From contig CAZOQP010000001.1 of assembly GCA_964582295.1 (NCBI GenBank), positions 84,754-148,753 on the forward strand: a stretch of DNA of 64,000 nt. Reading direction: 5' to 3'. The translations under genes and the position numbers were made by a program. The notes under the pieces were generated by a model. The model worked only from the letters and a program-made list of their open reading frames with translations, made no database searches and was not told where the DNA came from. Origin of the DNA: an uncultured Candidatus Saccharibacteria bacterium. Its GTDB lineage: Bacteria; Patescibacteriota; Minisyncoccia; Phycocordibacterales; Zambryskibacteraceae. Of the stretch, positions 23,359 through 63,855 are shown one piece after another; position 1 is the stretch's first letter; every line of letters begins with the position of its first letter.

Positions 23359-23429
23359 CGGGACGTAGTATAGTGGCAGTATATATGCTTTGGGAGCATA
23401 GGGTCCGAGTTCGATTCTCGGCGTCCCGA
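23359..23429 (+). tRNA. tRNA-Pro (anticodon TGG)
   Basis: CGGGACG acceptor stem, anticodon stem-loop TATGC-TTTGGGA-GCATA, T-arm CCGAGTTCGATTCTCGG. Confidence 0.8.
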
Positions 23430-29047: not shown

Positions 29048-29048
29048 T

Positions 29049-34733: not shown

Positions 34734-35729
34734 CTAAAATGGATTCTTCGCGCCACGAACTTCAAAGTGGAGGTGGGGGCCGGTGGTTTTTCCGGTTAAT
34801 CCAACATATCCGATGACCTGGCCTTTATTTACAGATTCACCGGCGGATACGCTGTTTGAGCGATTGTGTGAATACAAAGTCTGAGTGCCGTTCGGATGTT
34901 CAATAACGATGTAATTTCCATATCCGCTGTTCCAGCCACCCTGGCGGGAAATGATAACGCGGCCTGCAGCTGCTGCCACGATAGGTGTACCAACGGGGGA
35001 AGCGAGGTCAACACCGTTGTGGCCGTGAATGCCCTGGGTGCGACGGCCAGGAACGGGCTTCATATAGTATCCGCTTGCAACATTGCTGGTGGTTTCCACG
35101 AACCTTACGGGGGTAGTAGCTGAAGTGGTTACAAGTTCGCCGTCAGGAACGATAACAACATCTCCCACGGCAAGTTTTGTTTCATTCGTAATGTCGTTGT
35201 ACGTCAAAATGTCGTCAATGCCAGCTTTGTATATCTTGGAGATGGATTGTGCTGTGTCTCCTTTCTTCACTACGTGGCGCACGCCCGATACAGGCAAAAT
35301 GGTAAGTGTTTGACCTTCTGAAATTACACTTCCTTTAAGATCGTTCGCCCAGCGAATAGTGTTCACTGACACATTAAACATTTGTGCGATAACTGAAAGA
35401 GTGTCGCCCTTTCGCACAACATATACGGAGATCTGATCAGAAGAAGGTCTGTCCTTAAGGTTTTCAGCAAGACCTCCAGCGGGAGAATCCTGCGCTACCA
35501 GCGCTCCGCCCTGCACTAATATTTCAGCGCCACCGGTGTTAGGTGCTGTATCAATGTTCAAAGGTGCCTGAAGCAGGGGAAGGTTCTGCGAATTGTAAGA
35601 CTTCACCACTTGAGCTTCGGCTGGTTTGAAAATACCACTTATGAATTCAACAAGGCCCGCGTGTGTAGCCGCGGGAGAAATGGAAAAGAGAGAGGCCGAA
35701 AGAAGGGCGGAAAAAATAGAACGCCTCAA
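34734..35729 (-). CDS. M23-family peptidoglycan endopeptidase with LysM domains
   Basis: Two LysM repeats (YVVRKGDTLSVIAQMFNVSVNTIRWAN; HVVKKGDTAQSISKIYKAGIDDILTYN). C-terminal M23 motif (HNGVDL...HLHFEV). Confidence 0.85.
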   Translation of the reverse strand: MRRSIFSALLSASLFSISPAATHAGLVEFISGIFKPAEAQVVKSYNSQNLPLLQAPLNIDTAPNTGGAEILVQGGALVAQDSPAGGLAENLKDRPSSDQISVYVVRKGDTLSVIAQMFNVSVNTIRWANDLKGSVISEGQTLTILPVSGVRHVVKKGDTAQSISKIYKAGIDDILTYNDITNETKLAVGDVVIVPDGELVTTSATTPVRFVETTSNVASGYYMKPVPGRRTQGIHGHNGVDLASPVGTPIVAAAAGRVIISRQGGWNSGYGNYIVIEHPNGTQTLYSHNRSNSVSAGESVNKGQVIGYVGLTGKTTGPHLHFEVRGAKNPF

Positions 35730-39994: not shown

Positions 39995-41812
39995 ATGAAA
40001 AAGAAAATTTTACTTTTTATACTCTTATTCTCTATATTGGGAAGTCTTTTAATTCCATCAACTACCCAGGCCCAGGGAATAAATATCCCACCACTTACCG
40101 GACTTAGCGAAACTATTCCTCCTGTACCCGTAGGAGATGCTGCCATAAGGAAAAAAGAGGTGGGCTTTACTATTTTTGGAATAGACACGGGTATTTCATG
40201 GGACAGCATAGTGATTATGCTTGGCAGGGCGATGCTAGACAACATATTTGACAGTATGACCGACTGGGTGAACCGCGGATTTGAAGGCAATCCGACTTTC
40301 GCAACAGATCTTAATGATTATTTGTCTAAGGTTGGGGATGTTGTGATAGGAGACGCCTTGAATGAAATAACCAACGGCTTCGCCTGTGAGCCTTTTCGCC
40401 TGGAGATAAGAGCTGCCATAGAAAGAGACTTCGGGGCCGGGGGGCAAGGCAAAATTTTCAAAAACTCCTGCACTTTGAGCGAGATAGAAGCGAACGTGGA
40501 TAATTTTTTGGATGGAAGTTTTGTTGATGGCGGGTGGCCGGCATGGTTCAGGATAACCCAAGTTGATGAGAACAATCCTTACGGCTCATATTTAGAAGCA
40601 AGAGGCGCCATCACTGCAAGTATTGAAGGAGCGCGAAGTGTGGAGCTTGCTAAATTAAGCTGGAGCCAGGGATTCATAGATACACGTGAATGCCTGGAAT
40701 ATCAGACGACCGTAATGATGACAGCGGCAGGTCCTGTTCCTGTTCCTACACAGATATGTAATAAATGGGGGCCGGTAAAAACCCCCGGTGCAGTTATTGC
40801 AAACCAGGTAAATAAACAATTCGGAGCATCAACAGATCAGTTAATAACTGCAGACGAATTGGACGAATTTTTCGCGGCTGTCGTAAACCAGCTCCAGAAC
40901 ATGGTGTTCAGTAGAGATGGAATATTCCGTACGGGAGGAGCACCAAGAATTTCAGGAGCGGCAGGAGATTACAATAGACAGCCGTTCGATCTAGGAACAG
41001 GAGCTTGCACAGTCGAACCCCCCGCACCGATCGTGGTAGGTAGTGACACCACATGGAGAATAACAACTGCCGTAAACGGATCGAATCCTCAATATGTATG
41101 GAGTGGTACGGATATGAGTTCCACCACCAACGCATCCTCGCTAAAGGTTTCTTACTCAATACCCGGCGACAAAAATATGTCGGTTACCCTTTCATATGAC
41201 GAGATCGATCAATCTCAAAGTCCTGATCCAACAACTGGTCAGTATCCGACAACACGAAAAACCCAGAATGTTTCTTGCCCCACCATTCTCGTAACCCCAC
41301 CACCTCTTGCTATTTCATGCATATTAGCTCCACTGGTTATAAACTCTCCTTCCTCTACAAATCATCGTATCTCCCCTACAGATCAAAATGACAGCGTGTG
41401 GGATGGCCCGAATGATCCGGATAATATGTATGCGAGGTACAGGAACGGCACCCTTACGGAAACTGATAAAAAATATCTGGTGGTCTGGCAGGTCACTATC
41501 TCGGGCGGCTCAGGCAAACTTGACCGTATTACTGTCGAAAAGGATAGCGGTATCAATATTGGTGTGAACAGCCAGCTCCCTCCATATCTTCCGAGCCTTA
41601 ATTACTCCCCGGCAGCCGGTATCCCTGTTCAAGGCAACCCCCCATCTATCACCTTAAGACTGCCGGCCTGGTATGAAGAGAGTAATATATTTGCAAGACA
41701 GAACTTAAATGTTGATAAAACCTTAAGAATAAGCGTTCTTGATTCAGATCAGAGCATTGCGAACGGCTTTGTGAACCAATCCTGCCAATCCGTTAAAGTA
41801 ATAGGCCCATAG
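39995..41812 (+). CDS. secreted hypothetical protein, 605 aa
   Basis: Signal peptide MKKKILLFILLFSILGSLLIPSTTQAQG. Gap of 4 nt from the upstream gene. Confidence 0.4.
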   Translation: MKKKILLFILLFSILGSLLIPSTTQAQGINIPPLTGLSETIPPVPVGDAAIRKKEVGFTIFGIDTGISWDSIVIMLGRAMLDNIFDSMTDWVNRGFEGNPTFATDLNDYLSKVGDVVIGDALNEITNGFACEPFRLEIRAAIERDFGAGGQGKIFKNSCTLSEIEANVDNFLDGSFVDGGWPAWFRITQVDENNPYGSYLEARGAITASIEGARSVELAKLSWSQGFIDTRECLEYQTTVMMTAAGPVPVPTQICNKWGPVKTPGAVIANQVNKQFGASTDQLITADELDEFFAAVVNQLQNMVFSRDGIFRTGGAPRISGAAGDYNRQPFDLGTGACTVEPPAPIVVGSDTTWRITTAVNGSNPQYVWSGTDMSSTTNASSLKVSYSIPGDKNMSVTLSYDEIDQSQSPDPTTGQYPTTRKTQNVSCPTILVTPPPLAISCILAPLVINSPSSTNHRISPTDQNDSVWDGPNDPDNMYARYRNGTLTETDKKYLVVWQVTISGGSGKLDRITVEKDSGINIGVNSQLPPYLPSLNYSPAAGIPVQGNPPSITLRLPAWYEESNIFARQNLNVDKTLRISVLDSDQSIANGFVNQSCQSVKVIGP

Positions 41813-41818: not shown

Positions 41819-44149
41819 TTGTGTGGACGGCGCGTCCAATTTTTGTCCTTTATCGGATACTATAGGAGTATGAGTTCTTCATGGAAAATACTAATTTCCT
41901 GCTTTTTGGTGTTTTCAATGGCAACAATAGTTTTCCTTCCTTTACCCGCCCACGCTCTATCTCTATTCGGTTTTGCTGCGGGGGCTATCGAGAGTGCGGT
42001 CGCGACACTTGCAAACATGGTTTTGAAGTTCTTTGCTTTCCTGTTGGGAATATGCGCTGTACTACTAGATTACTCCTTGAATCTTACGGTAGTACAGCTA
42101 AGTGAAAACCTCAAAAGTCTTACTGCTATAAACGAAACATGGTCCACCATAAGAGACTTAATAAACCTTTCATTCATATTCATTCTCCTCTTCGCAGCAA
42201 TACGCACAATTCTTGGGCTGGAATCTCCTGTAAAAGTAATAAAAAATATTGTACTCGCTGCGCTCTTCATAAATTTTTCCATGTTCTTCACGCGCGTGAT
42301 GATAGACGCCTCAAACTCTGTAGCCCTGTTCTTTTATGAACGTATAACTTCGGCAATTGTTGACACGAGTGGTTTGGGATCCGCAGCAAATATGTTATTG
42401 AGCGAGCGAGGGAAAACTTTAAGCGCCCTGTATGCCAATCCGCTTAGACTGGGAACTTTATACAAAGCGGCAGACGGAACCGCATCCCAGGTCGTAAATT
42501 CCACAAACATATACACTATCGGACTTATGGGCTCTATGATGCTCGCTTTAGTGGCTTTCGTATTTTTAACCATAGCCATAATGTTTGTTATCCGCTATGC
42601 CGCACTTATTGTTCTTCTGATATTTTCGCCGCTTGGTTTCATAAGCAAGGATCTGCCGATGATAGGGGAGTACAACCAGCAATGGTGGGGTATGCTCAAA
42701 TCACAACTCTTGTTTCCGCCCGTGTTCATGATAATGACCTGGATAACGATCAAGGTCATAAACTCGCCAGGCATTCTGGGGATATGCAAGGACCCGGGAG
42801 ATTGTAATTTTAGAGGCGCTTTGGCAGCAAGCGGGGATATTCCTGATGTGAGTGGAGTGGGCCTCATGATAAATTTTGCGGTAATAATGGCGCTCATCGT
42901 GATGTCTCTTCTTATATCAATTCAGACCGCATCCAAGGGAGCGGAGGCATTTTCAGGTCTCTACAAAAAGGCCAGCAAATGGGCAGGAGGTGCCATGTTT
43001 GGCGGCGCATCTCTTATCGGAAGACAGACGTTTGGTAGGGGATCGGAGATGCTGAAAAATACCAATATGTACACGAAGTGGGAGGCGAAATCTAAGGACA
43101 GTATGATGGCCCGTCTTGCTCTGAACACGGTAGACCAGACCAGGACCGGTTCCATGGACACGCGTGGTTCAAAGTTTGGAAAAGCATTTGCCGGGATGAC
43201 GGGCCTTGATGCGGGAGAAGCTGTGGGACAAGGTGGATTTGAAGCAGATAGAAAGGCCTACAAAGAATATTTTGCAAGACCTGGCTCAGAAGCTAAAAGG
43301 GAGAGGGACGAAAGAGCGGCTAAAGCTACGGCCGTGCTCGACATTGAGGCAGCTCAGGATCTTGATCCGGCTCAAATTGATGCAATAAGAGCTCTCGTAG
43401 GACCTCGAACACCCGACCAGCAGGAAATGGTAGATAAGATGGACAAAATGGAAAAAGCCCTTGCACGCATGACGGATAAGGAGGTGGAGGCAATAGTATC
43501 AAGCAACAAGAAACTTCTTGATAAAGAAGCATTTGCTCAAAAATTAAGCGTTCAACAACTGGAAACTATAAATAAGAGCGATAAATTCTCGGATGAAGAA
43601 AAGAGGGTCTTCAACGACAACCGCTTCAAGCAAATATCCTCAATTATTGAGGCCGCCCAAAGGACTGGAACACCAATTAGTTCTACTGATGCCAAAAAGA
43701 TTGCTGGACTTACAGATAAAGAACTTGAATACGTACCTTCAGACATCATCAACAATAAAAACTTCGTCGGAGCGTTGCGATCTTCACATATGGACTACGT
43801 AAAGAAGAGCACCAAATTCACATCTTCACAGAAAGATGCGATTAAGAATTCTCGCCAGGACGCTCTATTAGGTAGAGTCCAAACTACTCCGTCAGAAATA
43901 GCTAAATTAGATCCAAAAGACGTGGCCAGTCTATTTGACCGGGGAGTACTTACGGATCCTATATATCTAGAACATCTTAATCCTAAAAAGTTAAAGAGTA
44001 TTGGTAAGGAAATAGACGATGAGAGGAAAATAGATCAGATAAAAGCCGCAATTACTGCAGCACCTGGAGGCCCGGCAGGAGGCCCTCCAACAGGAATAGA
44101 TAGATTACAGACATGGCAAGGAAGCCCGGACTATCAAAATAATTTCTAA
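41819..44149 (+). CDS. VirB6/TrbL-like (TcpH/ConG-type) polytopic membrane protein with large C-terminal hydrophilic coiled-coil domain
   Basis: About 8 predicted TM helices in the first ~400 aa. A ~370-aa charged C-terminal region ends in a Pro/Gly-rich tail. This architecture is typical of Gram-positive T4SS VirB6 homologs. Confidence 0.5.
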   Translation: MCGRRVQFLSFIGYYRSMSSSWKILISCFLVFSMATIVFLPLPAHALSLFGFAAGAIESAVATLANMVLKFFAFLLGICAVLLDYSLNLTVVQLSENLKSLTAINETWSTIRDLINLSFIFILLFAAIRTILGLESPVKVIKNIVLAALFINFSMFFTRVMIDASNSVALFFYERITSAIVDTSGLGSAANMLLSERGKTLSALYANPLRLGTLYKAADGTASQVVNSTNIYTIGLMGSMMLALVAFVFLTIAIMFVIRYAALIVLLIFSPLGFISKDLPMIGEYNQQWWGMLKSQLLFPPVFMIMTWITIKVINSPGILGICKDPGDCNFRGALAASGDIPDVSGVGLMINFAVIMALIVMSLLISIQTASKGAEAFSGLYKKASKWAGGAMFGGASLIGRQTFGRGSEMLKNTNMYTKWEAKSKDSMMARLALNTVDQTRTGSMDTRGSKFGKAFAGMTGLDAGEAVGQGGFEADRKAYKEYFARPGSEAKRERDERAAKATAVLDIEAAQDLDPAQIDAIRALVGPRTPDQQEMVDKMDKMEKALARMTDKEVEAIVSSNKKLLDKEAFAQKLSVQQLETINKSDKFSDEEKRVFNDNRFKQISSIIEAAQRTGTPISSTDAKKIAGLTDKELEYVPSDIINNKNFVGALRSSHMDYVKKSTKFTSSQKDAIKNSRQDALLGRVQTTPSEIAKLDPKDVASLFDRGVLTDPIYLEHLNPKKLKSIGKEIDDERKIDQIKAAITAAPGGPAGGPPTGIDRLQTWQGSPDYQNNF

Positions 44150-44802: not shown

Positions 44803-45261
44803 TTGGCGGGTTATAATATCTTTATGCGTTTTCAAGTACCACAGTTCATTGAAGTTGAAGACAAGATATTCGGACCCTTCACGTTCAAACAATTCGTTTA
44901 TCTTGCAGGTGGGGCAGGGATGATAGCTATTGCCTTCACGTTTCTTCCTAAGTTCTTGGCTTTTCTTGTAGCCCTTCCTATTGCAGGACTTGCGGCAGCC
45001 CTTACTTTTTACAAAGTGAATAACCGTCCTTTCATTTACACACTGGAGGCATACCTCAACTATCTGCTCACTAAAAAACTTTTCGTATGGAAAACCAGGC
45101 AAAGGACGGCGCAAGCCCATCCTTCGGCCGACACAAATTCTGAAAGACCGCAGGTGCAAGTGCCTAAAATTTCAGGGAGCAGACTTCGCGACCTTACATG
45201 GGATCTGAGCGTTAAAGGACGGACCGACATAAATCAAACAAAAGACACGGATACCGTTTAA
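44803..45261 (+). CDS. VirB3-like / TcpE-like small 2-TM protein
   Basis: FGPFTFKQFVYLAGGAGMIAIAFTFLPKFLAFLVALPIAGLAAALTFY. Two TM helices, directly upstream of the VirB4 genes as in Gram-positive T4SS. Confidence 0.4.
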   Translation: MAGYNIFMRFQVPQFIEVEDKIFGPFTFKQFVYLAGGAGMIAIAFTFLPKFLAFLVALPIAGLAAALTFYKVNNRPFIYTLEAYLNYLLTKKLFVWKTRQRTAQAHPSADTNSERPQVQVPKISGSRLRDLTWDLSVKGRTDINQTKDTDTV

Positions 45262-45291: not shown

Positions 45292-45924
45292 ATGCCAATA
45301 TCCGCACAATCTACACAAGACTTCGTACCTATAAAAGACGTGCGCGACGGAGTCGTCATTTTAAAAGACGGAGGATTGAGAAGTATCCTGATGACATCAT
45401 CTGTCAATTTTTCCCTGAAGTCGGAGGACGAGAAGACCGCCATCATTTATCAGTTCCAGGATTTTCTGAATTCCCTTGATTTCTCAGTGCAAATACTGAT
45501 GCAGTCCCGCAAGCACGACATCAGACCTTACTTGGCTCTCCTTGAAGGCCGCAAAAAAGAGCAGATGAACGATCTTTTGAAGATCCAAATACAGGAATAC
45601 ATAGAGTTCATAAAAACTTTTACAGAACGCCAGAACATAATGACGAAAAGTTTTTTCGTGGTAGTGCCCTATACTCCGAATGCCCTTAATAACTCCAATT
45701 TCATGCAGAAAGTCATGCCTGGAAAAGGAACACCCACCCAAAAGAAAGAAGGGAAATTTGAAGAGGACGTCGTTCAGCTTGATCAGCGCCTCTCTGTTGT
45801 AATGCAGGGGCTTTCGCGCTGCGGCTTGCGAGCAGTTCGCCTTGGCACAGAAGAGGTAATCGAGCTTTTCTACAAAGTTTTCAACCCCGGGGAAACAGAG
45901 AAGCCGATCCAGATGCAATCATAA
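45292..45924 (+). CDS. VirB4-family N-terminal domain protein (separate ORF)
   Basis: FVPIKDVRDGVVILKDGGLRSILMTSSVNFSLKSEDEKTAIIYQFQDFLNSL resembles the N-terminal region of Gram-positive VirB4/TrsE/ConE ATPases. Ends with TAA 2 nt before the next ATG, in a different frame. Confidence 0.45.
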   Translation: MPISAQSTQDFVPIKDVRDGVVILKDGGLRSILMTSSVNFSLKSEDEKTAIIYQFQDFLNSLDFSVQILMQSRKHDIRPYLALLEGRKKEQMNDLLKIQIQEYIEFIKTFTERQNIMTKSFFVVVPYTPNALNNSNFMQKVMPGKGTPTQKKEGKFEEDVVQLDQRLSVVMQGLSRCGLRAVRLGTEEVIELFYKVFNPGETEKPIQMQS

Positions 45925-45926
45925 AT

Positions 45927-47765
45927 ATGTCTTTCCTAGATATTTTCAAATCAAAAAATAAAGAGGGGAATGCACCAGCGCCCGGCAATATTCTTCCTAA
46001 AGAAGTGTACGACTCAAGTGTGCTTGACCTTAAAGACATCATCGCACCAAGCGCTCTTAAGATAGGCCAGAAGCATCTTGATCTCGGAGACAAAGTGGTT
46101 AGAAGTTTTTTCGTAATTTCTTATCCGCGCTTTCTTGCAGAAGGATGGTTCGCCCCCATCATCAATCTGGACAAGGTTTTTGACGTTTCCATATTCGTAC
46201 ACCCAGCTGAAACCTCAACCGTATTAAGGCAATTCCAAAAGAAAGTGGCTGAAGTCCAAAGCCAGATACACGAAAGGGAGGAGAAGGGCCTGGTTCGCGA
46301 TCCTATGCTTGATGTGGCTTACCAGGACCTTGAAAATCTCCGCGATCAGCTTCAGCAGGCGCAGGAACGCCTCTTTGATGTCGGCCTTTACATCTCTATT
46401 TACGCGGACAATGAATCAGAGCTAGACAAAATAGAATCCGAGATGAAATCCATCCTTGAAGCGAAGATGGTGTATATTAAGCCCGCACTTTTCCAGCAGA
46501 ATGACGGCTTCGCTTCCTCTCTTCCTATCTGCGAAGATGCACTCAAAGTAAACCAGAAGCTCAATTCTTCGCCTTTATCATCTCTTTTCCCGTTCATTTC
46601 CTTTGACCTCACATCAGACCGCGGCGTACTTTACGGAATAAACCGCCACAATTCATCCCTCGTCTTGTTTGATCGCTTCTCTCTTGAAAACTACAACTCC
46701 ATCACCTTCGCAAAATCCGGTGCCGGAAAATCTTATGCGACCAAGCTTGAAATATTGCGCTCCCTTATGTTCGAGACCGATGTCATTGTCATTGATCCGG
46801 AGCGTGAATACGAATACCTGGCAGAAGCCGTGGGTGGGCGCTACTTCAACATTTCCCTCAATTCGGAGCACCACATAAACCCCTTTGAATTGCCGCTTCC
46901 CGGGCCTGATGAATCGGCTGCAAGCGTTTTGCGTTCAAACATTGTGAATCTGGTGGGGCTTTTCCGACTAATGCTCGGAGGACTTACCCCAGAAGAGGAT
47001 GCTCTTATAGACAGAGCATTAAGCGAAACATATGCCCTCAAAGACATCACTCCCGATTCCGATTTCAGAAATATAGAGCCACCACTTCTTTCAGACTTTG
47101 AGCTGGTGCTTTCAGGGCTTGAGGGAGGAGAATCTCTTGCACAGCGCCTTTCCAAATACACCAAAGGAACTTGGGCTGGCTTCATCAACCGCCCTTCTAA
47201 TGTGGATATCAACAAAAAATTCGTGGTCTTTTCTCTCCGCGATATGGAAGATGAACTGAAGCCTATTGCCATGTACATCGTGACCCACTTCATATGGAGC
47301 GCCGTCAGAAAGGAGTTGAAGAAACGCCTGCTTGTCATAGACGAGGCATGGTGGATGATGAAATCAGAAGACACAGCATCTTTCCTTTTGAACATGGCAA
47401 AACGTGGCAGAAAATATTTCCTGGGGCTTGCAACCATCACCCAAGACGTTGACGACTTCCTGAAATCGCCCTACGGAACGCCTATTATCACAAACTCGTC
47501 CATTCAAATACTTTTAAAACAATCCCCGACGGCAATCGACCGTCTTCAGGAGGTCTTCAATCTGACAGATGAAGAAAAATATCTCCTTCTTGAATCAGGG
47601 GTAGGAGAGGGCATTTTCTTCGCAGGTCTCAAGCATGTCGCCATAAAAATAATCGCCTCCTACACAGAAGACCAGATAATCACTTCCGACCCATCACAGC
47701 TCCTCGCTATCGCAAAATCAAAACAGGAAGCTAAAAATACAAATGAAGGAACGGCGATTCTCTAA
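45927..47765 (+). CDS. virB4: type IV secretion VirB4-family ATPase
   Basis: YPRFLAEGW N-domain motif, Walker A AKSGAGKSY, Walker B LLVIDEAWWMM (the VirB4 DEAW motif), and the C-terminal ATPase core. Confidence 0.8.
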   Translation: MSFLDIFKSKNKEGNAPAPGNILPKEVYDSSVLDLKDIIAPSALKIGQKHLDLGDKVVRSFFVISYPRFLAEGWFAPIINLDKVFDVSIFVHPAETSTVLRQFQKKVAEVQSQIHEREEKGLVRDPMLDVAYQDLENLRDQLQQAQERLFDVGLYISIYADNESELDKIESEMKSILEAKMVYIKPALFQQNDGFASSLPICEDALKVNQKLNSSPLSSLFPFISFDLTSDRGVLYGINRHNSSLVLFDRFSLENYNSITFAKSGAGKSYATKLEILRSLMFETDVIVIDPEREYEYLAEAVGGRYFNISLNSEHHINPFELPLPGPDESAASVLRSNIVNLVGLFRLMLGGLTPEEDALIDRALSETYALKDITPDSDFRNIEPPLLSDFELVLSGLEGGESLAQRLSKYTKGTWAGFINRPSNVDINKKFVVFSLRDMEDELKPIAMYIVTHFIWSAVRKELKKRLLVIDEAWWMMKSEDTASFLLNMAKRGRKYFLGLATITQDVDDFLKSPYGTPIITNSSIQILLKQSPTAIDRLQEVFNLTDEEKYLLLESGVGEGIFFAGLKHVAIKIIASYTEDQIITSDPSQLLAIAKSKQEAKNTNEGTAIL

Positions 47766-48102
47766 AAATACCAGGAGGATACTTTTTACCGCCGCCATCA
47801 TCCTTGAGCTTGCTCAATTCTCCGTACAAGCGCTTCCTGTAGTCGGGCAGGTAATGGGTTCAGTAATTGGAGGAGTATTTTTTGCTTTTTCTTTTATAGT
47901 GGCAAAAGTTCACGGCATCAAATTCGTAAAGCCGAAAAAGGTTTTAGGGCTGGGTGTCGTTACTTTTATTGAACTCATGCCCCTCATAGGCGCTCTGCCC
48001 GGATGGACCATATATGTGTGGAGATTAGTTGCAGATAACAAGAAAAACACAGAGCCACCTGTGGGGGAAAAGACGGCGGCGCAAGAAACAAACAGGATAT
48101 AA
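47743..48102 (+). CDS. small 3-TM membrane protein in T4SS-like operon
   Basis: Hydrophobic helices ILFTAAIILELAQF, VIGGVFFAFSFIVA, LGVVTFIELMPLIGALPGW. Overlaps the virB4 3' end by 23 nt. Confidence 0.4.
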   Translation: MKERRFSKNTRRILFTAAIILELAQFSVQALPVVGQVMGSVIGGVFFAFSFIVAKVHGIKFVKPKKVLGLGVVTFIELMPLIGALPGWTIYVWRLVADNKKNTEPPVGEKTAAQETNRI

Positions 48103-48109: not shown

Positions 48110-49111
48110 ATGAGATCGCTCTTCACTTTAGGCGCGTGCCTCTTCATATTTTTTTCATCGTCTGTAAATGCCAACGCCCAGATTGATGGGGCAACCATCA
48201 AAACCATAAGAGAGAATGGTATAACTCTTTCCGCCCGGCCGGAATTCCCTAAACCCGGGGAAACCGTAGTGGTTTCGCTTTCCGCCACTTCAGTAGATTT
48301 AGATAGCGCCACCATCACGTGGTTCGTAAACGAGAGAGTGATAGTTAAAGGTATAGGGGAAAAACAAGTGAGCATATCCGCTCCTTCGGCAGGAACTATA
48401 ACTTCCGTGAGGGTTTCCATATCAAGCGGAGGATTCATATACGAAAAAAGTACCACTGTAAATGGGGCCGGGGTTTCTCTTATATGGGAGGCCCGCTCCT
48501 ATGTTCCGCCTCTTTTCTACGGCAAAGCGCTCCCTACCCGCGGTTCTTTCATTGTGTTGCAGGCCATTCCGCATTTCAAAAGCGGGGGCGTATCCGTCAG
48601 TCCTCAAAATCTTGTCTTTACCTGGAAACAGGATGGGGCTGTCATTCAAAACCGTTCCGGCTACGGAAAAGATTCTTTCAACTTCATGAACGACAGTTTC
48701 AAGGACACAACAACGATAGAGGTTTCGGCCAAAACTCTTGATGATAGATTTACCGCGTCTGATTCAATAACCATCACGCGCCAAAACCCTCGCATAGGCC
48801 TTTACCGCTTTTCTCTTCTTTACGGCAGTCTTTTGCAAGAAGAAGAATCTAACCAGAACCTGGTGGGGGAAAGGGAGATCGGAATCCGTGCTGTGCCATG
48901 GTACTCTCCCATTAATCCGTCTTTCCGTTTTCAAGTCCCGAATCTGAATTGGATGGTGGGGAAAACCAGTGCCAGCAATAACGGCCTTACGTATCTAATG
49001 ATAGAGAACCGAAATGGAACGGCCAATACGGGAACTGTTTCGGTATCCATCAAAGAACCAAAGCATTTTGGTGAAGACAAAGTTTCTTCGGTCAATCTGC
49101 AATTTGAGTAA
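48110..49111 (+). CDS. secreted beta-rich hypothetical protein
   Basis: ORF 48029..49111. Likely start MRSLFTLGACLFIFFSSSVNANAQ (signal peptide) at 48110. Confidence 0.4.
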   Translation: MRSLFTLGACLFIFFSSSVNANAQIDGATIKTIRENGITLSARPEFPKPGETVVVSLSATSVDLDSATITWFVNERVIVKGIGEKQVSISAPSAGTITSVRVSISSGGFIYEKSTTVNGAGVSLIWEARSYVPPLFYGKALPTRGSFIVLQAIPHFKSGGVSVSPQNLVFTWKQDGAVIQNRSGYGKDSFNFMNDSFKDTTTIEVSAKTLDDRFTASDSITITRQNPRIGLYRFSLLYGSLLQEEESNQNLVGEREIGIRAVPWYSPINPSFRFQVPNLNWMVGKTSASNNGLTYLMIENRNGTANTGTVSVSIKEPKHFGEDKVSSVNLQFE

Positions 49112-49112: not shown

Positions 49113-50081
49113 ATGAAAAAATTACATACTAAAATACTTATCTCTTTCGTACTACTGTCTTTAGTGTTCGCGTTCACCACGGCAGTGCAGGCACAAAATA
49201 CTCCGGAGCCTATAAAATATGTACCCCTTGAACAAGTGCCGGGTTTAACTGTAGGATCGGGAGAAACTGCTTACATTGACCTTGCTCAATATCTTCCAAA
49301 TCTAATTAAGTTGGCCATAGGCCTTGCCGCGGCGCTTTCTGTTATTTACATAATCGTAGGAGGGTTCCAGTATCTTTCAACGGACGCTATTTCAGGCAAA
49401 AGCGAGGGGAAGGAAAAAATACAGAATGCTCTCTGGGGTTTGGCTCTTGCCATCGGCTCGTGGGTGATACTCAATACTATTAACCCGGCCTTGGTAAATA
49501 TAAATTTGGATATTCAGCCAACAGCTCCATTAGCCGCCCCATCTCCTGGAGAAACTATTGGGGGCGGCCCGGGAGATTCATGCCCGCGTATGCAGGGGGG
49601 CAGTACCGAACCATGTATATGTGTTGATTGTGTGGACGGTCCAATTGGAGTTAGATTCAAATCGGCAGGGCATAAAATGAATGCCAGCCTCGCCACCAAA
49701 TTACAAAGGGCAATGGAAGGTTTTTTCCTTGAAGGACCCACTTCAGCAGATGAACCTGTCCCAACAAAGATACCTATAGAGTGGTGGGTAACTGAAGCTT
49801 GGGCCCCCAGATCAGCACATCAAAGCAGATGCCACTACAATGGTGCATGTATTGATCTCAATACTATCCCCGGGTTCACATCCGGCTCTACCCCAACAAG
49901 AGTGCTCGCCGAAAAACTTAATATAATAGCTGATGAGCTTAAAAGTGAGGGCCTTAGCGTTGTAATTTTTGAAGTGAAGACACAGCAAGACATGGACCGT
50001 TTAACTGGAGTGGGAGTAAGAAGAGATTTCTTACGTTTAAATCCAGGGGCATCGGAATCTCATTTCCATATTGGACTGTAA
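49113..50081 (+). CDS. VirB2/TrbC-like pilin domain fused to Cys-rich C-terminal extracellular domain
   Basis: Signal peptide, then two hydrophobic helices (LIKLAIGLAAALSVIYIIVGGFQYL; LWGLALAIGSWVILNTINPAL) separated by a charged loop (SGKSEGKEKIQNA). C-terminal ~200 aa carry CPRMQGGSTEPCICVDCVDG...RCHYNGACID. Start at MKKLHTK (49113). Confidence 0.45.
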   Translation: MKKLHTKILISFVLLSLVFAFTTAVQAQNTPEPIKYVPLEQVPGLTVGSGETAYIDLAQYLPNLIKLAIGLAAALSVIYIIVGGFQYLSTDAISGKSEGKEKIQNALWGLALAIGSWVILNTINPALVNINLDIQPTAPLAAPSPGETIGGGPGDSCPRMQGGSTEPCICVDCVDGPIGVRFKSAGHKMNASLATKLQRAMEGFFLEGPTSADEPVPTKIPIEWWVTEAWAPRSAHQSRCHYNGACIDLNTIPGFTSGSTPTRVLAEKLNIIADELKSEGLSVVIFEVKTQQDMDRLTGVGVRRDFLRLNPGASESHFHIGL

Positions 50082-50087: not shown

Positions 50088-51284
50088 GTGAACAAAAAAC
50101 TTATAATTTTAATTCTTGTTGTGATCCTCATCGGGGGAGGAATTTCGTTTTTCTTTCTCTCTAAAAATACGACGACGGCACCCGCTGTAGTTACCGGGAC
50201 TGACAGTCCTTTTGGTGTGGGGAGAGCGGGGGAAAGGGCGGGCGAGCCGGCAGAGCAAAATAATAATGAGAATACTAATTCAATATCCGTAAATCAGGAC
50301 GGAGTGGTCATAAAGAAAATAGTTTCAGAGCCGGTAGCCGGTTTCATATTTATAGGCAAAGGAGCTTCAACTACTATCCGGTATGCCGAACGCGGGAGCG
50401 GACGCGTGAATGATATTTCTCTAGGTACCACTCCTGAAACCCAAAAAGTAACAGGTGACACCCAATCTCGCATCGTATCTGCTGTATTCCTAGAACAAGG
50501 GAAAGGTCTTTTGAGGTTCAAAGAAACCGATACGGGATCAGTTACCGCCTTGTATTCAAAAGTAGCCACATCCTCAGTAAGTAAGGAGATATCAGGAACT
50601 ATTTTAGACCTTGATGTCACAGCGGATGGGAATAAAGTCATATTCGTATTTGAAGACGAACTTGGCTCTGCCATAACAACCGCGAACGGGGACGGGACAG
50701 GCGCCCAAGTGGCATGGAGAAGCTCTCTTCAGGAATGGCTTGTGCAAGGTCTTAATAAAAATGTCATCTCTATTCAGACAAAGTCCGCAAGGGGTATGCC
50801 TGGATCAGCATTTATTATTTCGGGCGGCGCCTCCGAATTATATCTTTCAGGGCAAAGCGGTTTCAGAGCCATGGTAAGCCCAGACGGAATGTTCGCGGTC
50901 TTCAGCGACTATACAAACACGGCTTCGCCCGTGCAGATTTATGATAAAGAGGCGGAAGAAAAACGCGGACTATTTCTCAATACTCTTCCTGAAAAATGCG
51001 TGTGGTCCAATATAAAAGCAGACGGTCTTTATTGCATAGAATTCGCCGGACGGAACACTGGTCTTCCGGACATTTGGTACAGAGGAGAAATATTTTTGAA
51101 TGCAGGCAAAGTGTGGAGAATATCCGCCAAGACAAACATTGAAGAATCTTTGGCCGACCTCGGAAGCTTGAATGAAGCTATTGATGCGATAGAGCTTGGC
51201 TTATCTTCAGACGAACAGTGGCTCGGATTTATGAATAAAAGAGATTACTCTCTGTGGGTGATAGATCTCTCGGGAGCTAACTAG
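50088..51284 (+). CDS. membrane-anchored exported protein, beta-propeller-like, hypothetical
   Basis: N-terminal TM anchor (LIILILVVILIGGGISFFFL). TolB/WD40-like segments (VSPDGMFAVFSDY). Confidence 0.4.
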   Translation: MNKKLIILILVVILIGGGISFFFLSKNTTTAPAVVTGTDSPFGVGRAGERAGEPAEQNNNENTNSISVNQDGVVIKKIVSEPVAGFIFIGKGASTTIRYAERGSGRVNDISLGTTPETQKVTGDTQSRIVSAVFLEQGKGLLRFKETDTGSVTALYSKVATSSVSKEISGTILDLDVTADGNKVIFVFEDELGSAITTANGDGTGAQVAWRSSLQEWLVQGLNKNVISIQTKSARGMPGSAFIISGGASELYLSGQSGFRAMVSPDGMFAVFSDYTNTASPVQIYDKEAEEKRGLFLNTLPEKCVWSNIKADGLYCIEFAGRNTGLPDIWYRGEIFLNAGKVWRISAKTNIEESLADLGSLNEAIDAIELGLSSDEQWLGFMNKRDYSLWVIDLSGAN

Positions 51285-52008
51285 TCGCAACAGTTATATT
51301 TTGTCCGCCAGCTGGCGGAGCAAATTTTTTCTTTAGATAAAGATCCTGAATGATGGTTAAAATATTTGAAGTCGTCCAATAAAGACCAACTACGCCGGAT
51401 ATCTGCCACGACACAACGAAAGCAAGGATGGGGAATATCACTCTCATTTGGATTTTCATCATGCGCGCAAGCGCTTCGTTCTTGCCTCCTATATCCTGGG
51501 CCGCGCTTGAAAGATGTATCTGGATGTAGCTCGTAATACCTGCAAGGATAGCAAGGACGAGACTTTTCTCAGTAAGCACTGCTAGCCCTAAGAAAGACAT
51601 ATCTATAGCCGCAGGATACGGAATGAAGCTATACAGAAGGTCAGCATTAATAACAGGTAAACCGGACTGGACCAGAATGTAGTAGAGGCCGAAGATGATC
51701 GGTATCTGGAGAAAAAGAACCACGATGCCGGAGAATGGATTGGTTTTTGATTCCGAATAAACCTCCATTATTTTTTTTGCCTGCATTTCCTTATCGTTGG
51801 GGTACTCGGCTTTGATGGCTTCCATCTTCGGCTGGAGACGTTTCATTTCCATTTGCGAGCGATAAGCTTTTTTTGAAAGAGGGAAGAGTATGAGACGCAC
51901 TATAAAAGTGAAAATGATGACCAGAAATCCTGCATCAAGAGCCGGGAAGAGGTCCGCGAGAAGAATGAAGATGTTGTAGAGCGGCTGGGATATAAGGGTG
52001 CGGAACAT
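51277..52008 (-). CDS. yidC: membrane protein insertase YidC (short Gram-positive type)
   Basis: YidC/Oxa1 core helices. Position immediately downstream of rnpA. Confidence 0.85.
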   Translation of the reverse strand: MFRTLISQPLYNIFILLADLFPALDAGFLVIIFTFIVRLILFPLSKKAYRSQMEMKRLQPKMEAIKAEYPNDKEMQAKKIMEVYSESKTNPFSGIVVLFLQIPIIFGLYYILVQSGLPVINADLLYSFIPYPAAIDMSFLGLAVLTEKSLVLAILAGITSYIQIHLSSAAQDIGGKNEALARMMKIQMRVIFPILAFVVSWQISGVVGLYWTTSNILTIIQDLYLKKKFAPPAGGQNITVATS

Positions 52009-55564: not shown

Positions 55565-57733
55565 CTAGATACCGAATCCGTTCTGAATTGCCCACAGTCT
55601 TACACCGTATTCCCATAATCTGAACTGAGGGTCGCCTTGAGGATTTAGTGGGTATGGCCCCCGTGGGTTGTCTTTGTCCACCCAGTAAAGAATTGAATGC
55701 ACTCCACCCGAAAGACTTTCGTTAGGTGAGATTGAAATGTTGGTTCCTGGTATGAACACGGGAGCTGTTGATGTGAAAGATGCAATACCTCCCTGCCATT
55801 GTCCGCGAAGGACGGGCTTTAAGCTTGATGGGTCGTCGCGCACTATTGCCGGGAAAGATTCGTTCGGAAGACGAGAGAGAATGAAATCCATATATGCCCG
55901 CCACATCGGAGCTACAATGAAGCCCGCCACTTTTTTCTCCATTGGAGTGTTGTCGTTGTTGCCGGCCCAGGCGCCCAAAACTACGGACGGAGTGTATCCG
56001 ATTATCCAGGCATCCCTGTAATCGTTGGTAGTTCCTGTTTTCACAGCCACATCCCTGTCCGAAAAATGAAGCGCTGAAGTTTCTCCGAACGCAGGTGCTC
56101 GTGCCACGTTGTCTGAAAGAATGTCTGATATCAAAGATGCAACCTCTTGCGGTATCACCCGGCGGGTTTTTTCTTCATATTTTTCAAGAACGCTTCCGCG
56201 ACCATCCCGCACTTCAATTATGGGAGTCGGATTATTGCGCACACCGCCTGATGCGAACACTCCGTAAGCACCCGTCATTTCAAGAGGAGAAACTTCGCCG
56301 CCTCCAAGTACCAGAGTGAGACCGTATTGTGACGCATCTCCCAAACTTGAAACTCCCATATTGCGTGCAAGGGTCAGAGAGTCTTCAAGCCCTGCAAGAT
56401 ATAAAGTTTTGACGGATGTAATGTTTATTGATTGAGCTAGCGATTCCCGCATGGAGACAGGTCCGCGGAATTTGCCGTCGTAATCAACGGGAGAGTAGCA
56501 GCCGTTCTCGCTTGTGTAATTGTCAGGAGCGCAGGCCGAGGCGAACTGTGTGCGCACGTCAAAAAGCATTGTTTCGGGGGTGTAGCCCTTTATAAAGGCC
56601 TCTGCGTACACGAATGGCTTGAAGGTTGAGCCCGGCTGGCGTTTGGAGGTTGCTACATTGAAATTACCCTGTATGCGGTTGTCAAAATAATCCCGCGAAC
56701 CGATCATGGCGAGTATCTGGCCGCTTCTAGGGTCTATAACCACGAAGGCAGCATTTTCTGCGTTGAAGGTCTTTTCATTTTCCAAAGCGTAATCCCTGGC
56801 TATTTCCTCGCCTCTTTCCTGTATCTCCGCATCAAGTGTCGTAACCACTCTCAATCCCCCTGATTCAAGCACGTCCTCCCCGTATTTTCTTTGAAGATAA
56901 TCAGTTACATAAAAAACAAAGTGGGGTGCACGGATACCAGCTGTTTGTTTTGTTTGGAACTTAACGTCTTCACTCAATGCTTTCTGGTACTCCTCCTCAA
57001 TGATGAAACCGGACTCTTTCATTTCCGCAAGCACCAGATTTTTTCTATCATCAAGTTTGTCGCGGTTTTCTCCGTGCGGCGAATAATAAGTGGGAGCTTG
57101 GGGGATAGCTGAAATATATGCCGCTTCGGCTAGCGTTACATCGGAAGCGTTCTTACCGAAAAAAGATTGTGCGGCTTCTTCCACTCCGTAAATGCTTCCT
57201 CCGTATGGTATTTCATTGAAATAAAGTGTGAGTATCTCGTCCTTTGAGATGGCGCGCTCGAGCTTGAGCGACAAAACTATCTCTTTAAGTTTACGGGTGA
57301 TAGTTTTGTCGCTTGAAAGAAGAACGTTCTTTACCACCTGCTGGGTGATGGTTGAGCCGCCTTGGCTAAATCCGAAAGAAGTGAGGTTCGCAATGACCGC
57401 TCTCATGAAAGAAGAAATGCGTATACCTTTGTGAGTGTAGAAGGCCTTGTCTTCTATTGCTATCGTGCCTCTTTGGATGTAGGGAGATATCTCGGATAGA
57501 GCGACACTGGTACGACGGCTGTTCTTTGAAACGTCATAAAGCAAAACTTCACCGGTGCGGTCGTATATCTTGGTGGACTGCTCTATGCGGCGCGAGACCA
57601 CCCCTTGAAGTGTTGGAAGGGAAAGATTTGAAAGCCAGAAAAGGGAAAGTCCTAGGAAAACGAGGGCCACACTTGCGATCGCGAGGGTGCGCGTCTTTAG
57701 CCGTTTTTTTCTCATATAAGCCAATAATACCAT
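55565..57733 (-). CDS. mrcA: class A penicillin-binding protein (transglycosylase/transpeptidase, PBP1A)
   Basis: N-terminal TM, GT51 motifs (EDKAFYTHKGI; GGSTITQQ), and a transpeptidase domain. Confidence 0.85.
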   Translation of the reverse strand: MVLLAYMRKKRLKTRTLAIASVALVFLGLSLFWLSNLSLPTLQGVVSRRIEQSTKIYDRTGEVLLYDVSKNSRRTSVALSEISPYIQRGTIAIEDKAFYTHKGIRISSFMRAVIANLTSFGFSQGGSTITQQVVKNVLLSSDKTITRKLKEIVLSLKLERAISKDEILTLYFNEIPYGGSIYGVEEAAQSFFGKNASDVTLAEAAYISAIPQAPTYYSPHGENRDKLDDRKNLVLAEMKESGFIIEEEYQKALSEDVKFQTKQTAGIRAPHFVFYVTDYLQRKYGEDVLESGGLRVVTTLDAEIQERGEEIARDYALENEKTFNAENAAFVVIDPRSGQILAMIGSRDYFDNRIQGNFNVATSKRQPGSTFKPFVYAEAFIKGYTPETMLFDVRTQFASACAPDNYTSENGCYSPVDYDGKFRGPVSMRESLAQSINITSVKTLYLAGLEDSLTLARNMGVSSLGDASQYGLTLVLGGGEVSPLEMTGAYGVFASGGVRNNPTPIIEVRDGRGSVLEKYEEKTRRVIPQEVASLISDILSDNVARAPAFGETSALHFSDRDVAVKTGTTNDYRDAWIIGYTPSVVLGAWAGNNDNTPMEKKVAGFIVAPMWRAYMDFILSRLPNESFPAIVRDDPSSLKPVLRGQWQGGIASFTSTAPVFIPGTNISISPNESLSGGVHSILYWVDKDNPRGPYPLNPQGDPQFRLWEYGVRLWAIQNGFGI

Positions 57734-62127: not shown

Positions 62128-63855
62128 TTACTCAATCGCGAATTTACTGAGGTCCACTACGCGCTCAAGCTCGGAGAGGGAAGTGCGGCCCTGAAGGACT
62201 TTCAAAATACCGTCTTCAGGAAGAGAAAGTATCTTCTGGGGGCGGGCCGCATCGGCTATTTCCCTTTCGCTCGGATTGTCCCTCACCGCTTTTTCTATCG
62301 TTTCATCCATGATGATGCCTTCATATATGCCGATGCGGCCCTTGTAGCCAGTATGATTGCACGCGGCGCACCCTTCTCCCGGCTCAAATGCTTTGTCTGT
62401 CGCAACGCCTTCAAAAAAGCTTTTATCAGGCACTCCCGCAATTACTTTCTCCACCATTTTTTTCTGAACACCTTCCAAAGTCACTTCTTTCCTGCATTCC
62501 GTGCAAAGAGTTCTCACTAATCTCTGAGCGATAGCTATGTTTATTGCAGAAGAAAGAATTTTCGGATTAATACCAAGATCTATAAGGCGCGGGAAAGTGC
62601 CCGCAGCATCATTTGTATGCAAAGTGGAAAAAACGAGGTGACCAGTGAGCGCCGAGTTTATGGCGATCTCCGCGGTTTCTTCATCACGAATTTCTCCGAC
62701 CATTATCACGTCCGGGTCTTGGCGAAGGGCGCTTCTCAAGCCCTCGGCAAAGGTGTATCCGGTGTCTGTATTGGTCTGGGTCTGCACGATGCCAGGCAGG
62801 TGATATTCAATAGGGTTTTCAATGGTTATTATTTTCACGCCGGGCGCATGTATTTTTTTGAGGAATGCATAAAGGGTAGTGGTTTTTCCGGAGCCAGTAG
62901 GGCCTGTTGTGAGTATCATCCCGTTCGGTTTAGCTATCTCTTTCATTAAAATATCCAGGAGATGCGGATGAATGCCGAGATTTTCAAGAGACACCGAGAT
63001 GGAGCGAGGGTTAAGTACGCGAAGAACTATTGATTCAAAATATGCGCCCGGCAAAAGGGAAGTTCGTATCTCTATATCCCCCTCGGGAAGTTTTATGGAA
63101 AAGCGCCCGTCTTGGGATGAACCCACATTAAGTTTCAGATTTGAAATAAGTTTCACCCGTGAGACCAAAAGCTTGTATGTGTCGCGGTCAAAGGTCAGAA
63201 CGTCCTGCAAAACCCCGTCCAGGCGGTAACGCAGGCGCACATAATCTTCCTCGGGCTCCAGGTGAACGTCGGATGCGTTCAAAGCGAGCGCTCCTGCAAT
63301 GATAATCTCCAAAATGCGGGAGATGCGATAGCTTTTTTTTGCGGATAGGACCGTTTGTATGAGCTCTGTAATATCTTTCAGAGTTGAAGTTTTTTTCAGA
63401 AGGTCGGTTATCTCTTCGTTTGAAATATCAAGCGCTCCGGAATGCGTTTCAAAAGAATATGAAAGATCTTTATACCTGTCCCACACTTTGTTCATGCTCT
63501 GATGCGAGACCATAAAAAGGGTAGGGGCGTATCCTTCTTTCTTCAGGTTTTCTATCGCCTCAAGTGTTTTAGGATTATTGGGCGAGATAATGGCGACATC
63601 CAGTTTTTTATCAACTTCGTTGAAAACGGCAATATCCGCTTCCCGTGCCGCATCTTCATGAATGAGGCGGAGCGCGTCTATATTTATTGGCTGAAGTGAA
63701 AGATCTAAATATCCGAGGCCATATTTTTGGGCAAGAACCCGCGCGAGTTCCTCCTCCTCGTGTTTTTTTAGGTCTTCCACGCGGCGAAGCTGTTTTTCCT
63801 CCGGAAATTGAGCGTGGCCGTCGCCAGAATTAGTTGACTGGTCGTTATCTGACAT
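62128..63855 (-). CDS. second PilB/GspE-family secretion ATPase
   Basis: GspII_E_N-like N-domain, Walker A TTGPTGSGKTTT, ITIENPIEY motif, and a C-terminal CxxC...CxxC zinc motif (CTECRKE...CAACNHTGYKGR). Confidence 0.85.
   Translation of the reverse strand: MSDNDQSTNSGDGHAQFPEEKQLRRVEDLKKHEEEELARVLAQKYGLGYLDLSLQPINIDALRLIHEDAAREADIAVFNEVDKKLDVAIISPNNPKTLEAIENLKKEGYAPTLFMVSHQSMNKVWDRYKDLSYSFETHSGALDISNEEITDLLKKTSTLKDITELIQTVLSAKKSYRISRILEIIIAGALALNASDVHLEPEEDYVRLRYRLDGVLQDVLTFDRDTYKLLVSRVKLISNLKLNVGSSQDGRFSIKLPEGDIEIRTSLLPGAYFESIVLRVLNPRSISVSLENLGIHPHLLDILMKEIAKPNGMILTTGPTGSGKTTTLYAFLKKIHAPGVKIITIENPIEYHLPGIVQTQTNTDTGYTFAEGLRSALRQDPDVIMVGEIRDEETAEIAINSALTGHLVFSTLHTNDAAGTFPRLIDLGINPKILSSAINIAIAQRLVRTLCTECRKEVTLEGVQKKMVEKVIAGVPDKSFFEGVATDKAFEPGEGCAACNHTGYKGRIGIYEGIIMDETIEKAVRDNPSEREIADAARPQKILSLPEDGILKVLQGRTSLSELERVVDLSKFAIE

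Follow-up and report, generated by a model that had tools for sequence, protein, structure and literature searches.

The stretch of DNA analysed here (the window, 64 kb) comes from an uncultured Candidatus Saccharibacteria bacterium. It contains an open reading frame (ORF) on the + strand, 49113-50081, that runs from an ATG at 49113 to a stop codon at 50079-50081 and encodes a protein of 322 residues. In this protein a VirB2-like pilin module, of the kind found in the type IV secretion systems (T4SSs) of Patescibacteria, is joined to a C-terminal domain with the fold of Hedgehog N-domains and DD-peptidases (the LAS superfamily, named for lysostaphin, D-Ala-D-Ala carboxypeptidase and Sonic hedgehog). 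The identical protein is already present in NCBI (P0001), and 69 homologues of the 322-residue protein were found in a set of 5.8 billion proteins. The start was placed at 49113 rather than at an alternative ATG at 49014, because the latter overlaps the preceding gene and the homologues all align from M1, the Met at 49113. A gene-calling or assembly artefact was ruled out by synteny and by conservation, both of the whole protein (the 69 homologues) and of the C-terminal domain (134 representatives). The parts of the gene are as follows.

49113..50081, + strand: whole gene, VirB2-like T4SS pilin module and putative zinc-peptidase domain of Hedgehog/DD-peptidase fold, 322 residues
49113..49193, + strand: predicted signal peptide, residues 1-27 (KK n-region, hydrophobic core, AVQA before and QN after the predicted cleavage point), from hydropathy and Ala27 invariance
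49194..49289, + strand: predicted exposed N-terminal segment of the mature protein, with a conserved Y36-x-P-L...P43-G motif
49290..49379, + strand: hydrophobic helix 1 of the pilin module, residues 60-89, from hydropathy, AlphaFold2 (AF2) and the PF18895 match
49380..49421, + strand: charged inter-helix loop STDAISGKSEGKEK, residues 90-103, strongly conserved
49422..49496, + strand: hydrophobic helix 2 of the pilin module, residues 104-128, ending in a conserved ILNTINP motif
49497..49577, + strand: flexible linker rich in Pro, Gly and Ala, residues 129-155 (about 27 residues), from composition and pLDDT <50 (residues 130-153)
49578..50078, + strand: C-terminal domain of LAS (Hedgehog N-domain/DD-peptidase) fold, residues 156-322 (167 residues), from AF2, Foldseek and a profile search of PDB sequences
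49620..49631, + strand: CxxC (C170, C173), conserved in the family
49833..49856, + strand: predicted zinc-ligand motif H241-x6-D248 (CHYNGACID), aligned with Shh H141...D148
49971..49973, + strand: Glu287 (FEV), aligned with the catalytic Glu177 of Shh, conserved in 142 of 142 sequences
50061..50069, + strand: H317-F-H319 (H-x-H motif) at the C terminus

The pilin module

Ala27, at the predicted cleavage site, is invariant among 21 homologues (alignment A1), in which Y36, L39 and P43 are almost invariant as well. In the loop STDAISGKSEGKEK, D91 and G99 are invariant and K96 is kept in at least 90% of the homologues. The full-length AF2 model places helices at residues 57-89 and 93-123. The 194 residues C-terminal to helix 2 comprise the linker and then the compact domain; among the homologues the distance from the end of the module to the CxxC varies from 17 to 312 residues (median 38). 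Since a signal peptide, which is probably cleaved, precedes two membrane helices, the C-terminal domain is predicted to be extracytoplasmic. The original prediction, made from the DNA sequence alone, had described a signal peptide, two long hydrophobic helices and a short charged loop, and these are borne out by hydropathy, the AF2 helices and the invariance of Ala27. Its extracellular placement of the C-terminal domain agrees with the predicted topology, and both of the sequence motifs that it quoted are present as written. It counted seven cysteines, whereas the protein has six (positions 157, 168, 170, 173, 240 and 246).

A Pfam scan of the target gave one match, to PF18895 (T4SS_pilin) at residues 63-123, with a score of 19.8 bits (E 8.6e-4) that falls below the curated cut-off of 26.6 bits. 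The homology is secure all the same: PF18895 matches 50 of 61 members of the target's family (best E 6e-12), the target's module is 44%-65% identical to modules in relatives, scanned relatives with the module exceed the cut-off (L011, 38.7 bits; L043, 31.0; L053, 30.9; L046, 29.7), and bare pilins of 123-137 residues, which end just past the ILNTINP motif, occupy the same locus slot in four species genomes. On sequence grounds the N-terminal region is thus a Patescibacteria T4SS_pilin module, and it has the topology of that family, with signal peptide, two hydrophobic helices and a short, polar, conserved loop. Described Patescibacteria VirB2-like pilins are short and often arrayed in 2-11 copies; the target, in contrast, carries a 167-residue enzyme-fold domain and is the only pilin-module ORF within the 64-kb window, where no separate short pilin gene was found.

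The relation to classical conjugative pilins is more distant. Like the target, VirB2 and TrbC (PF04956) have a signal peptide and a helix-loop-helix and are encoded together with VirB3 and VirB4 homologues; they differ in being single-domain proteins of 98-120 residues (in the examples compared) from diderm MPF-T (mating-pair formation type T) systems, whereas the target has 322 residues, a second globular domain and a monoderm host. The classical comparison set consisted of eight annotated VirB2/TrbC genes from plasmids, retrieved with a VirB2 sequence that served only as a probe. Aligned by hhalign against these eight proteins, 86 modules showed a colinear helix-loop-helix at a level that is not significant (E 0.051, probability 1%). 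PF04956 was detected only below its cut-off, in scanned relatives (20.6 versus 27.9 bits; E 5e-4 and 1.7e-3) and in 3 of 61 family members. The proposed identity as a VirB2/TrbC-like pilin therefore holds as far as a T4SS pilin-type module in a VirB4 locus is concerned, and does not extend to significant direct similarity to VirB2 or TrbC.

The C-terminal domain

The C-terminal domain was remodelled alone, because a Foldseek search with the full-length model was swamped by generic helical hairpins from the N-terminal module. The domain-only AF2 model (pLDDT 92.7, pTM 0.87) retrieved Hedgehog N-domains and LdcB/VanY-like LD-carboxypeptidases from the PDB as its top 16 matches (probability 0.92-1.00, TM 0.35-0.55), with VanXY and the Ply500 endolysin next in the ranking. 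The fold is that of ShhN, LdcB and VanX, in which helices pack against an antiparallel sheet. The domain is 9%-17% identical to the Hedgehog and LdcB/VanY-like matches taken together, and 14%-17% to the Hedgehog domains. A profile of the family, searched against PDB sequences, matched 21 distinct sequences of Hedgehog N-domains (best E 2.1e-4), and the first match outside Hedgehog lay at E 0.3. A single-protein phmmer search of the PDB sequences returned nothing at E ≤ 10, Hedgehog being reached by the family profile alone.

In the profile alignment, residues H236, H241, D248 and E287 of the target fall on H135, H141, D148 and E177 of Shh. The family consensus W-x-V-T-E-A-W-P-P-T-x-x-H-x-x-x-C-H-x-x-G-x-C-V-D aligns to Shh, as does Y-E-V to Y-E-S of Shh; in the consensus region the target itself reads WVTEAWAPRSAHQSRCHYNGACID. 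The signature of LAS/DD-peptidases consists of H-x6-D and H-x-H around the zinc and a catalytic Glu, the role of E177 in Shh (PMC6027127). With the LAS peptidases (Hedgehog N-domain, LdcB/VanY, VanX/VanXY, Ply500; MEROPS M15) the target shares the fold, the H-x6-D and H-x-H motifs and the equivalent of Shh H135, and its Glu287 aligns with the catalytic Glu of Shh. Conservation was counted over 142 distinct sequences of the C-domain family. E228, H236, D248 and E287 are present in all 142, and H241, C240 and C246 in 141; the spacing of six in H-x6-D is kept in 138. The terminal motif, [HSA]-x-[HS], occurs as HxS (81), HxH (52), SxH (8) and AxH (1), with at least one His in every sequence. Taken together, the sequences and the model indicate that the domain is probably an active, divergent LAS-type zinc peptidase, whose activity would most likely be directed at peptidoglycan peptides.

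Unlike other LAS proteins, members of the target family have an extra N-terminal hairpin with the CxxC; their zinc motif is flanked by two cysteines, and an insert of about 30 residues separates the Glu from the His motif. C170 and C173 are kept in all family sequences that include that region, and these two, with C240 and C246, probably staple the N-terminal hairpin onto the catalytic segment, via disulfides or a structural metal. The acidic residues of the calcium site of Shh, D130 and D132, are replaced in the family by a conserved P-P-T-type segment. In bacterial Hedgehog-like proteins (bacHh) the domain is likewise C-terminal in a larger bacterial protein; these are defined by >50% identity to ShhN and by identical zinc and calcium ligands (PMC6027127). 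Membership of the target in that group was ruled out, with 14%-17% identity to Hedgehog domains and calcium ligands that are not kept. VanY (PF02557), Peptidase_M15 (PF01427) and HH_signal gave no match at E ≤ 1 in the target or at E ≤ 0.01 in 61 family members, and hhalign of the Hedgehog-like class against a pilin-fused VanY class reached only E 0.023. By these sequence comparisons the domain is therefore a separate LAS subfamily without a model in current domain libraries. Hydrolase domains of the SLT, CHAP and NlpC/P60 types had no Pfam match in the target.

The pilin module lies upstream in the same protein in 118 of 134 cluster representatives that were collected for the C-terminal domain alone (library of 1.84 billion proteins), and most of the other 16 are fragments of 100-200 residues. 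The Hedgehog-like peptidase subfamily is thus essentially confined to pilin fusions, and the related fusions that the original prediction had suggested looking for in other genomes were found. Individual relatives bear the database label "pilin" or "D-alanyl-D-alanine carboxypeptidase family protein" (the latter for P0063 in NCBI). Several have some hundreds of extra residues N-terminal to the pilin module (P0157, 823 residues; P0163, 1305 residues; L033, L059, L060), the lengths at L033, L059 and L060 being perhaps inflated since the ORF caller took the most upstream start.

The original prediction had suggested a tip or adhesin-like domain, and in a stricter form of that idea the domain would be a catalytically dead binding module that attaches a pilus to a ligand, much as Hedgehog N-domains serve as ligands. 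Hedgehog signalling domains, whose peptidase activity in vivo is debated (PMC6027127), are indeed the closest matches in both sequence and fold, and four conserved cysteines suggest a stabilised extracellular module. However, the fold is that of a zinc peptidase with its predicted catalytic residues intact and essentially invariant in 142 sequences, whereas the non-catalytic Drosophila Hh has lost them (PMC6027127), and the domains that replace it in the same slot are enzymes (see below). Such a binding role is accordingly very improbable. It had also been proposed that a match of the domain to a common unrelated enzyme would refute that prediction; the domain does have an enzyme fold, yet a wall hydrolase is a standard accessory of a T4SS, so that the objection applies only in part.

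The secretion locus and its exchanged heads

The gene lies in a block of T4SS genes on the + strand, which abut or overlap one another. Their order is 776-residue protein, 209-residue protein, PrgI, TrsD-like protein, VirB4, g119, g334, pilin, g398 and a hairpin, and virB4 lies two genes upstream of the pilin gene, with g119 and g334 between.

41819..44149, + strand: 776-residue polytopic membrane protein, candidate VirB6 analogue by topology only
44803..45261, + strand: PrgI family protein (VirB3-like), PF12666, E 2.9e-10
45292..45924, + strand: TrsD/TraC-like protein resembling the VirB4 N-terminal domain, NCBIfam TrsD E 1e-7, PF26593 in orthologues
45927..47765, + strand: VirB4-like T4SS ATPase, PF19044 E 2e-27, AAA_10, weak CagE_TrbE_VirB
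47743..48102, + strand: g119, 119-residue polytopic membrane protein conserved in 17 related loci
48110..49111, + strand: g334, secreted 333-residue protein (signal peptide, weak Ig-like matches)
50088..51284, + strand: g398, 398-residue protein anchored N-terminally
51304..51319, + strand: terminator-like hairpin 3' of g398, likely operon end, from a consensus match only

The 776-residue protein has 12 overlapping hydrophobic windows (about 7-8 distinct segments) in its first 375 residues and no Pfam match. The start of g119 overlaps the last 23 bases of virB4; its relatives in the 17 loci are about 32% identical and it matches no family. Beyond the hairpin, yidC and rnpA lie on the minus strand, followed by dnaA and dnaN. 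No relaxase and no coupling protein was seen in the window. The locus is thus of the kind described for Patescibacteria, with PrgI, TrsD and VirB4 near dnaA, rnpA and ksgA. According to a survey, the T4SSs of these bacteria lie near dnaA (with ksgA and rnpA nearby), have VirB2-like pilins, mostly lack VirB1 and lack a relaxase and a coupling protein (PMC12102498).

When one genome per species was scanned, 482 genomes proved to encode a relative of the module, and the 80 best loci were analysed. Nearly all belong to Patescibacteria-type metagenome-assembled genomes (MAGs), chiefly of Paceibacteria/Parcubacteria lineages. The nearest relative (L004, a Candidatus Paceibacterota MAG) has a VirB4 90% and a DnaA 83% identical to those of the window. 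The order PrgI-TrsD-VirB4-(g119)-g334-pilin-g398-YidC(-)-DnaA is found in 20 of the 21 non-window loci with the Hedgehog-like domain, and VirB4 lies within 6 kb of the pilin module in 70 of 82 pilin-module loci. On the upstream side the neighbour of the pilin gene is g334 in nearly all related loci; on the downstream side it is g398, regardless of the C-terminal domain of the pilin. Between g334 and g398, each of the 80 loci has a slot filled by a pilin-module gene, but the C-terminal parts encoded there (here called heads) belong to many unrelated classes.

Hedgehog-like LAS domain: 22 pilin genes (21 loci and the window)
Class without a model, with invariant E, H-x7-D, E and H-x-H: 21 pilin genes
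VanY/M15: 4 pilin genes
YkuD: 3 pilin genes
SLT: clusters c5 and c6, 2 genes each (the c5 match is weak)
NlpC/P60: 1 pilin gene
Bare pilin: 4 pilin genes
Other clusters without a Pfam domain besides the pilin module, and unscanned singletons: the remainder

Examples are the SLT head at L068 and the NlpC/P60 head at L054. The YkuD (L,D-transpeptidase) fusion is seen at L053:6001-6951 (E 1.7e-15) and also at L050 and L075; YkuD is a wall-building or wall-editing fold and not a lytic one, yet it occurs in the same slot. The second large class, c1, is found at L011:5911-6882 and 20 further loci, and in P0013, P0019 and P0007 (alignment A3). Its consensus, TGGTEYWLH...H.PGG..VDL...HWHV, is LAS-like in appearance. 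Across the 21 loci c1 had no match in Pfam or among PDB sequences, and hhalign against the Hedgehog-like class was weak (E 0.005, probability 7%). All partner domains that can be recognised in the slot are enzymes active on peptidoglycan, and no other indirect argument speaks as strongly for an action of the Hedgehog-like domain on peptidoglycan as well.

These observations bear on the view that the two-helix module is a mere anchor and that the enzyme is an LdcB/VanY-like carboxypeptidase which trims stem peptides in normal growth, its place in a T4SS locus being incidental. LdcB/VanY-like LD-carboxypeptidases are among the best fold matches, relative P0063 bears a carboxypeptidase name in NCBI, and similarity to classical VirB2 is not significant. 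However, in about 70 genomes the gene lies at a constant place, two to three genes past virB4. Within the protein it is the supposed anchor that is conserved best, and this module can stand alone as a 123-137-residue pilin in the same slot; moreover, exchange for SLT, NlpC/P60 or YkuD between near-identical loci is not expected of a housekeeping enzyme. A housekeeping role is therefore improbable.

Identities between the proteins of the window and those of its relatives differ widely from gene to gene.

VirB4: 77%-90%
DnaA: 58%-83%
Pilin module: 44%-65%
g334: 26%-46%
C-terminal domain: 25%-35%
g398: 24%-51%

VirB4 is more conserved than DnaA across the species-level genomes and reaches 98% identity between loci. 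By these values, the exposed proteins of the locus all evolve fast, and the pilin head is additionally replaced outright.

A rival reading places the action of the enzyme on the host bacterium. In this explanation the module polymerises or caps a filament or conduit, and the peptidase is displayed outside, where it would breach or remodel host peptidoglycan at the contact site; the slot would then combine a delivery module with an interchangeable wall-attacking head. Evolved VgrG/PAAR effectors and modular type IV pilins offer analogies. The head class differs between genomes whose VirB4 proteins are 95%-98% identical (L008 versus L011; L020 versus L028). Among homologues the C-terminal domain is about 29% identical and the pilin module about 64%. 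The absence of a separate short pilin gene from the window and the nearly constant fusion of the Hedgehog-like domain to the module point in the same direction. So does the lack of a relaxase and a coupling protein in T4SSs of this kind, together with the finding that a Saccharibacterium cannot live epibiotically without its T4SS (PMC12102498, PMC10633639). On the other hand, g334 and g398 diverge equally fast, so that speed is not specific to the C-terminal domain, and the same genes flank every head class, leaving no class-specific immunity gene. A diversity of domain composition is also seen among the hydrolases of Gram-positive conjugation systems (PMC12102498), and YkuD is not a typical lytic weapon. 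A globular domain of 167 residues on every subunit may fit poorly into a VirB2-type helical filament, and no pilus has been seen in these organisms. Host-directed action, which partly overlaps the reading favoured below, is thus a tentative proposal.

Two related arrangements were looked for and rejected: a class-specific immunity gene beside the pilin, since g334 and g398 flank every class, and, in loci with a short pilin, the enzyme as a separate nearby gene (ruled out for classes c0-c7 within 6 kb). No stand-alone copies of the head classes were found in the locus flanks.

Proposed function of the fused domain

The reading that we favour, with some confidence, is that the protein is a VirB2-like T4SS subunit carrying a built-in wall-opening enzyme of the VirB1/PrgK type. 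The signal peptide would be cleaved and the two hydrophobic helices would insert as a membrane hairpin with both ends outside, as the topology suggests. The flexible linker of about 27 residues would then tether the 167-residue LAS (M15-like) domain, a putative zinc peptidase, at the outer face of the membrane. There it may cleave peptidoglycan stem peptides or cross-links where the VirB4-driven machine is built, and so supply in cis the VirB1/PrgK-type wall opening that these loci otherwise appear to lack. Being part of the subunit which VirB4 presumably extracts and polymerises, the enzyme would also ride outward with any pilus or conduit, and once carried outward it could act on the wall of the host bacterium. 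As to its main target, we lean slightly toward local action at the machine over action on the host wall. The organism makes its own peptidoglycan, since a class A penicillin-binding protein is encoded at 55565-57733.

Known T4SS wall hydrolases provide the closest functional comparison. PrgK (pCF10), TraG (pIP501), TcpG, CwlT and VirB1 have, like the target, a peptidoglycan-cleaving domain (a predicted one in the target) outside the cytoplasm, which is encoded within a T4SS locus and anchored in the membrane through a hydrophobic N-terminal region. The Gram-positive enzymes vary in their domains (PMC12102498), as do the heads in the slot. The Gram-positive hydrolases and VirB1 use SLT, CHAP, NlpC/P60, LytM or glucosaminidase domains with a non-pilin anchor, whereas the target has a Hedgehog-like LAS domain on a pilin module, and Pfam and NCBIfam scans detected no sequence homology between the target and these hydrolases. 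It fits their class because of its locus position, its topology and its LAS fold, since the bacterial LAS proteins that have been characterised are directed at peptidoglycan peptides. In the virB regions of eight MPF-T plasmids (L083-L090), lytic transglycosylase (virB1), virB2 and virB3 are annotated in succession in seven; in the eighth, L086, the gene upstream of virB2 bears just the annotation "type IV secretion protein." In these plasmids hydrolase and pilin are thus encoded side by side, whereas in the Patescibacteria gene they are fused, and in the opposite order. TrbC and VirB2 undergo C-terminal processing, which is a precedent for a cleavable C-terminal extension.

Several points weigh against the favoured reading. 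The "pilin" label is a matter of Pfam family name, topology and gene context and not a demonstrated property; similarity of the module to classical VirB2 is below significance in hhalign, as given above, and the family profile matched no solved conjugative pilin among PDB sequences at E ≤ 10. For the enzyme, zinc binding and activity are deduced from fold and residues, and the active site is assigned by alignment only. The strict H-x-H form is present in only 52 of the 142 family members, and Glu287 lies about 30 residues from the His motif, which is not the case in Shh. No Pfam, NCBIfam or PHROG model, for a peptidase or otherwise, matches the C-terminal domain of the target or of 61 relatives. 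Finally, a gene for a protein with two LysM repeats and a Peptidase_M23 domain lies on the minus strand at 34734-35729, about 3.4 kb upstream of the start of the T4SS block at 39176, and its product could supply the VirB1 role instead.

A broader proposal, that the T4SS pilin slot of Paceibacteria-type Patescibacteria houses a polymorphic, effector-like family, is offered as a speculation. A conserved VirB2-like delivery module, extruded by a near-invariant VirB4 machine, would carry interchangeable peptidoglycan-active heads that are swapped between close relatives to match host walls. The heads would then comprise the Hedgehog-like LAS peptidase, the second class without a model, VanY, YkuD, SLT and NlpC/P60, and the slot would represent a previously undescribed use of a T4SS pilus, as an enzyme-bearing tool that opens the host wall.

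The T4SSs and VirB2-like pilins of Patescibacteria (PMC12102498, PMC10633639, PMC12857230), LAS peptidases and T4SS wall hydrolases are all already known. From sequences and models, what appears to be new is the pilin-hydrolase fusion itself, a real and widespread architecture assembled from known parts, for which a wall-opening function is proposed. No description of pilin-hydrolase fusions was found in full-text literature searches, nor when PMC12102498, PMC12857230 and PMC10633639 were checked for relevant terms. Patescibacteria make up a large fraction of bacterial diversity, and their T4SS is conserved, adjoins the replication origin and is devoid of DNA-transfer components. Southlakia epibionticum, a Saccharibacterium and the one species tested, cannot grow as an epibiont without its T4SS and the pilins of that system (PMC10633639). 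The survey noted that most systems have VirB2-like pilins and no recognisable VirB1, and concluded that they might do without a wall hydrolase (PMC12102498); for this lineage the fusion suggests an alternative, namely a hydrolase built into a pilin-like subunit. It also presents an enzyme head that is exchanged between genomes with a nearly identical ATPase, and what seems to be a new LAS-peptidase subfamily that is closest in sequence to animal Hedgehog N-domains.

Other features of the window were noted. The first gene of the + strand T4SS block starts at 39176, and near the head of the block a 605-residue protein with a signal peptide is encoded at 39995-41812 (+). It has no Pfam match, and its homologues were not detected in related loci, whose flanks may be too short. 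A T2SSE/PilB-type ATPase with an MshEN domain (62128-63855, minus strand, E 1e-113) is the motor of a type IV pilus or of a type II secretion system, distinct from the T4SS. A 731-residue PG_binding_1 protein adjoins a tyrosine recombinase (Phage_integrase, XerC/D-like) at 26849-29969 on the minus strand. Six tRNA genes, on both strands, are clustered at 22481-23429 (Gly-TCC, Gly-GCC, Pro-CGG, Arg-TCG, Pro-GGG and Pro-TGG), and the cluster holds all three tRNA-Pro isoacceptors found in the window.

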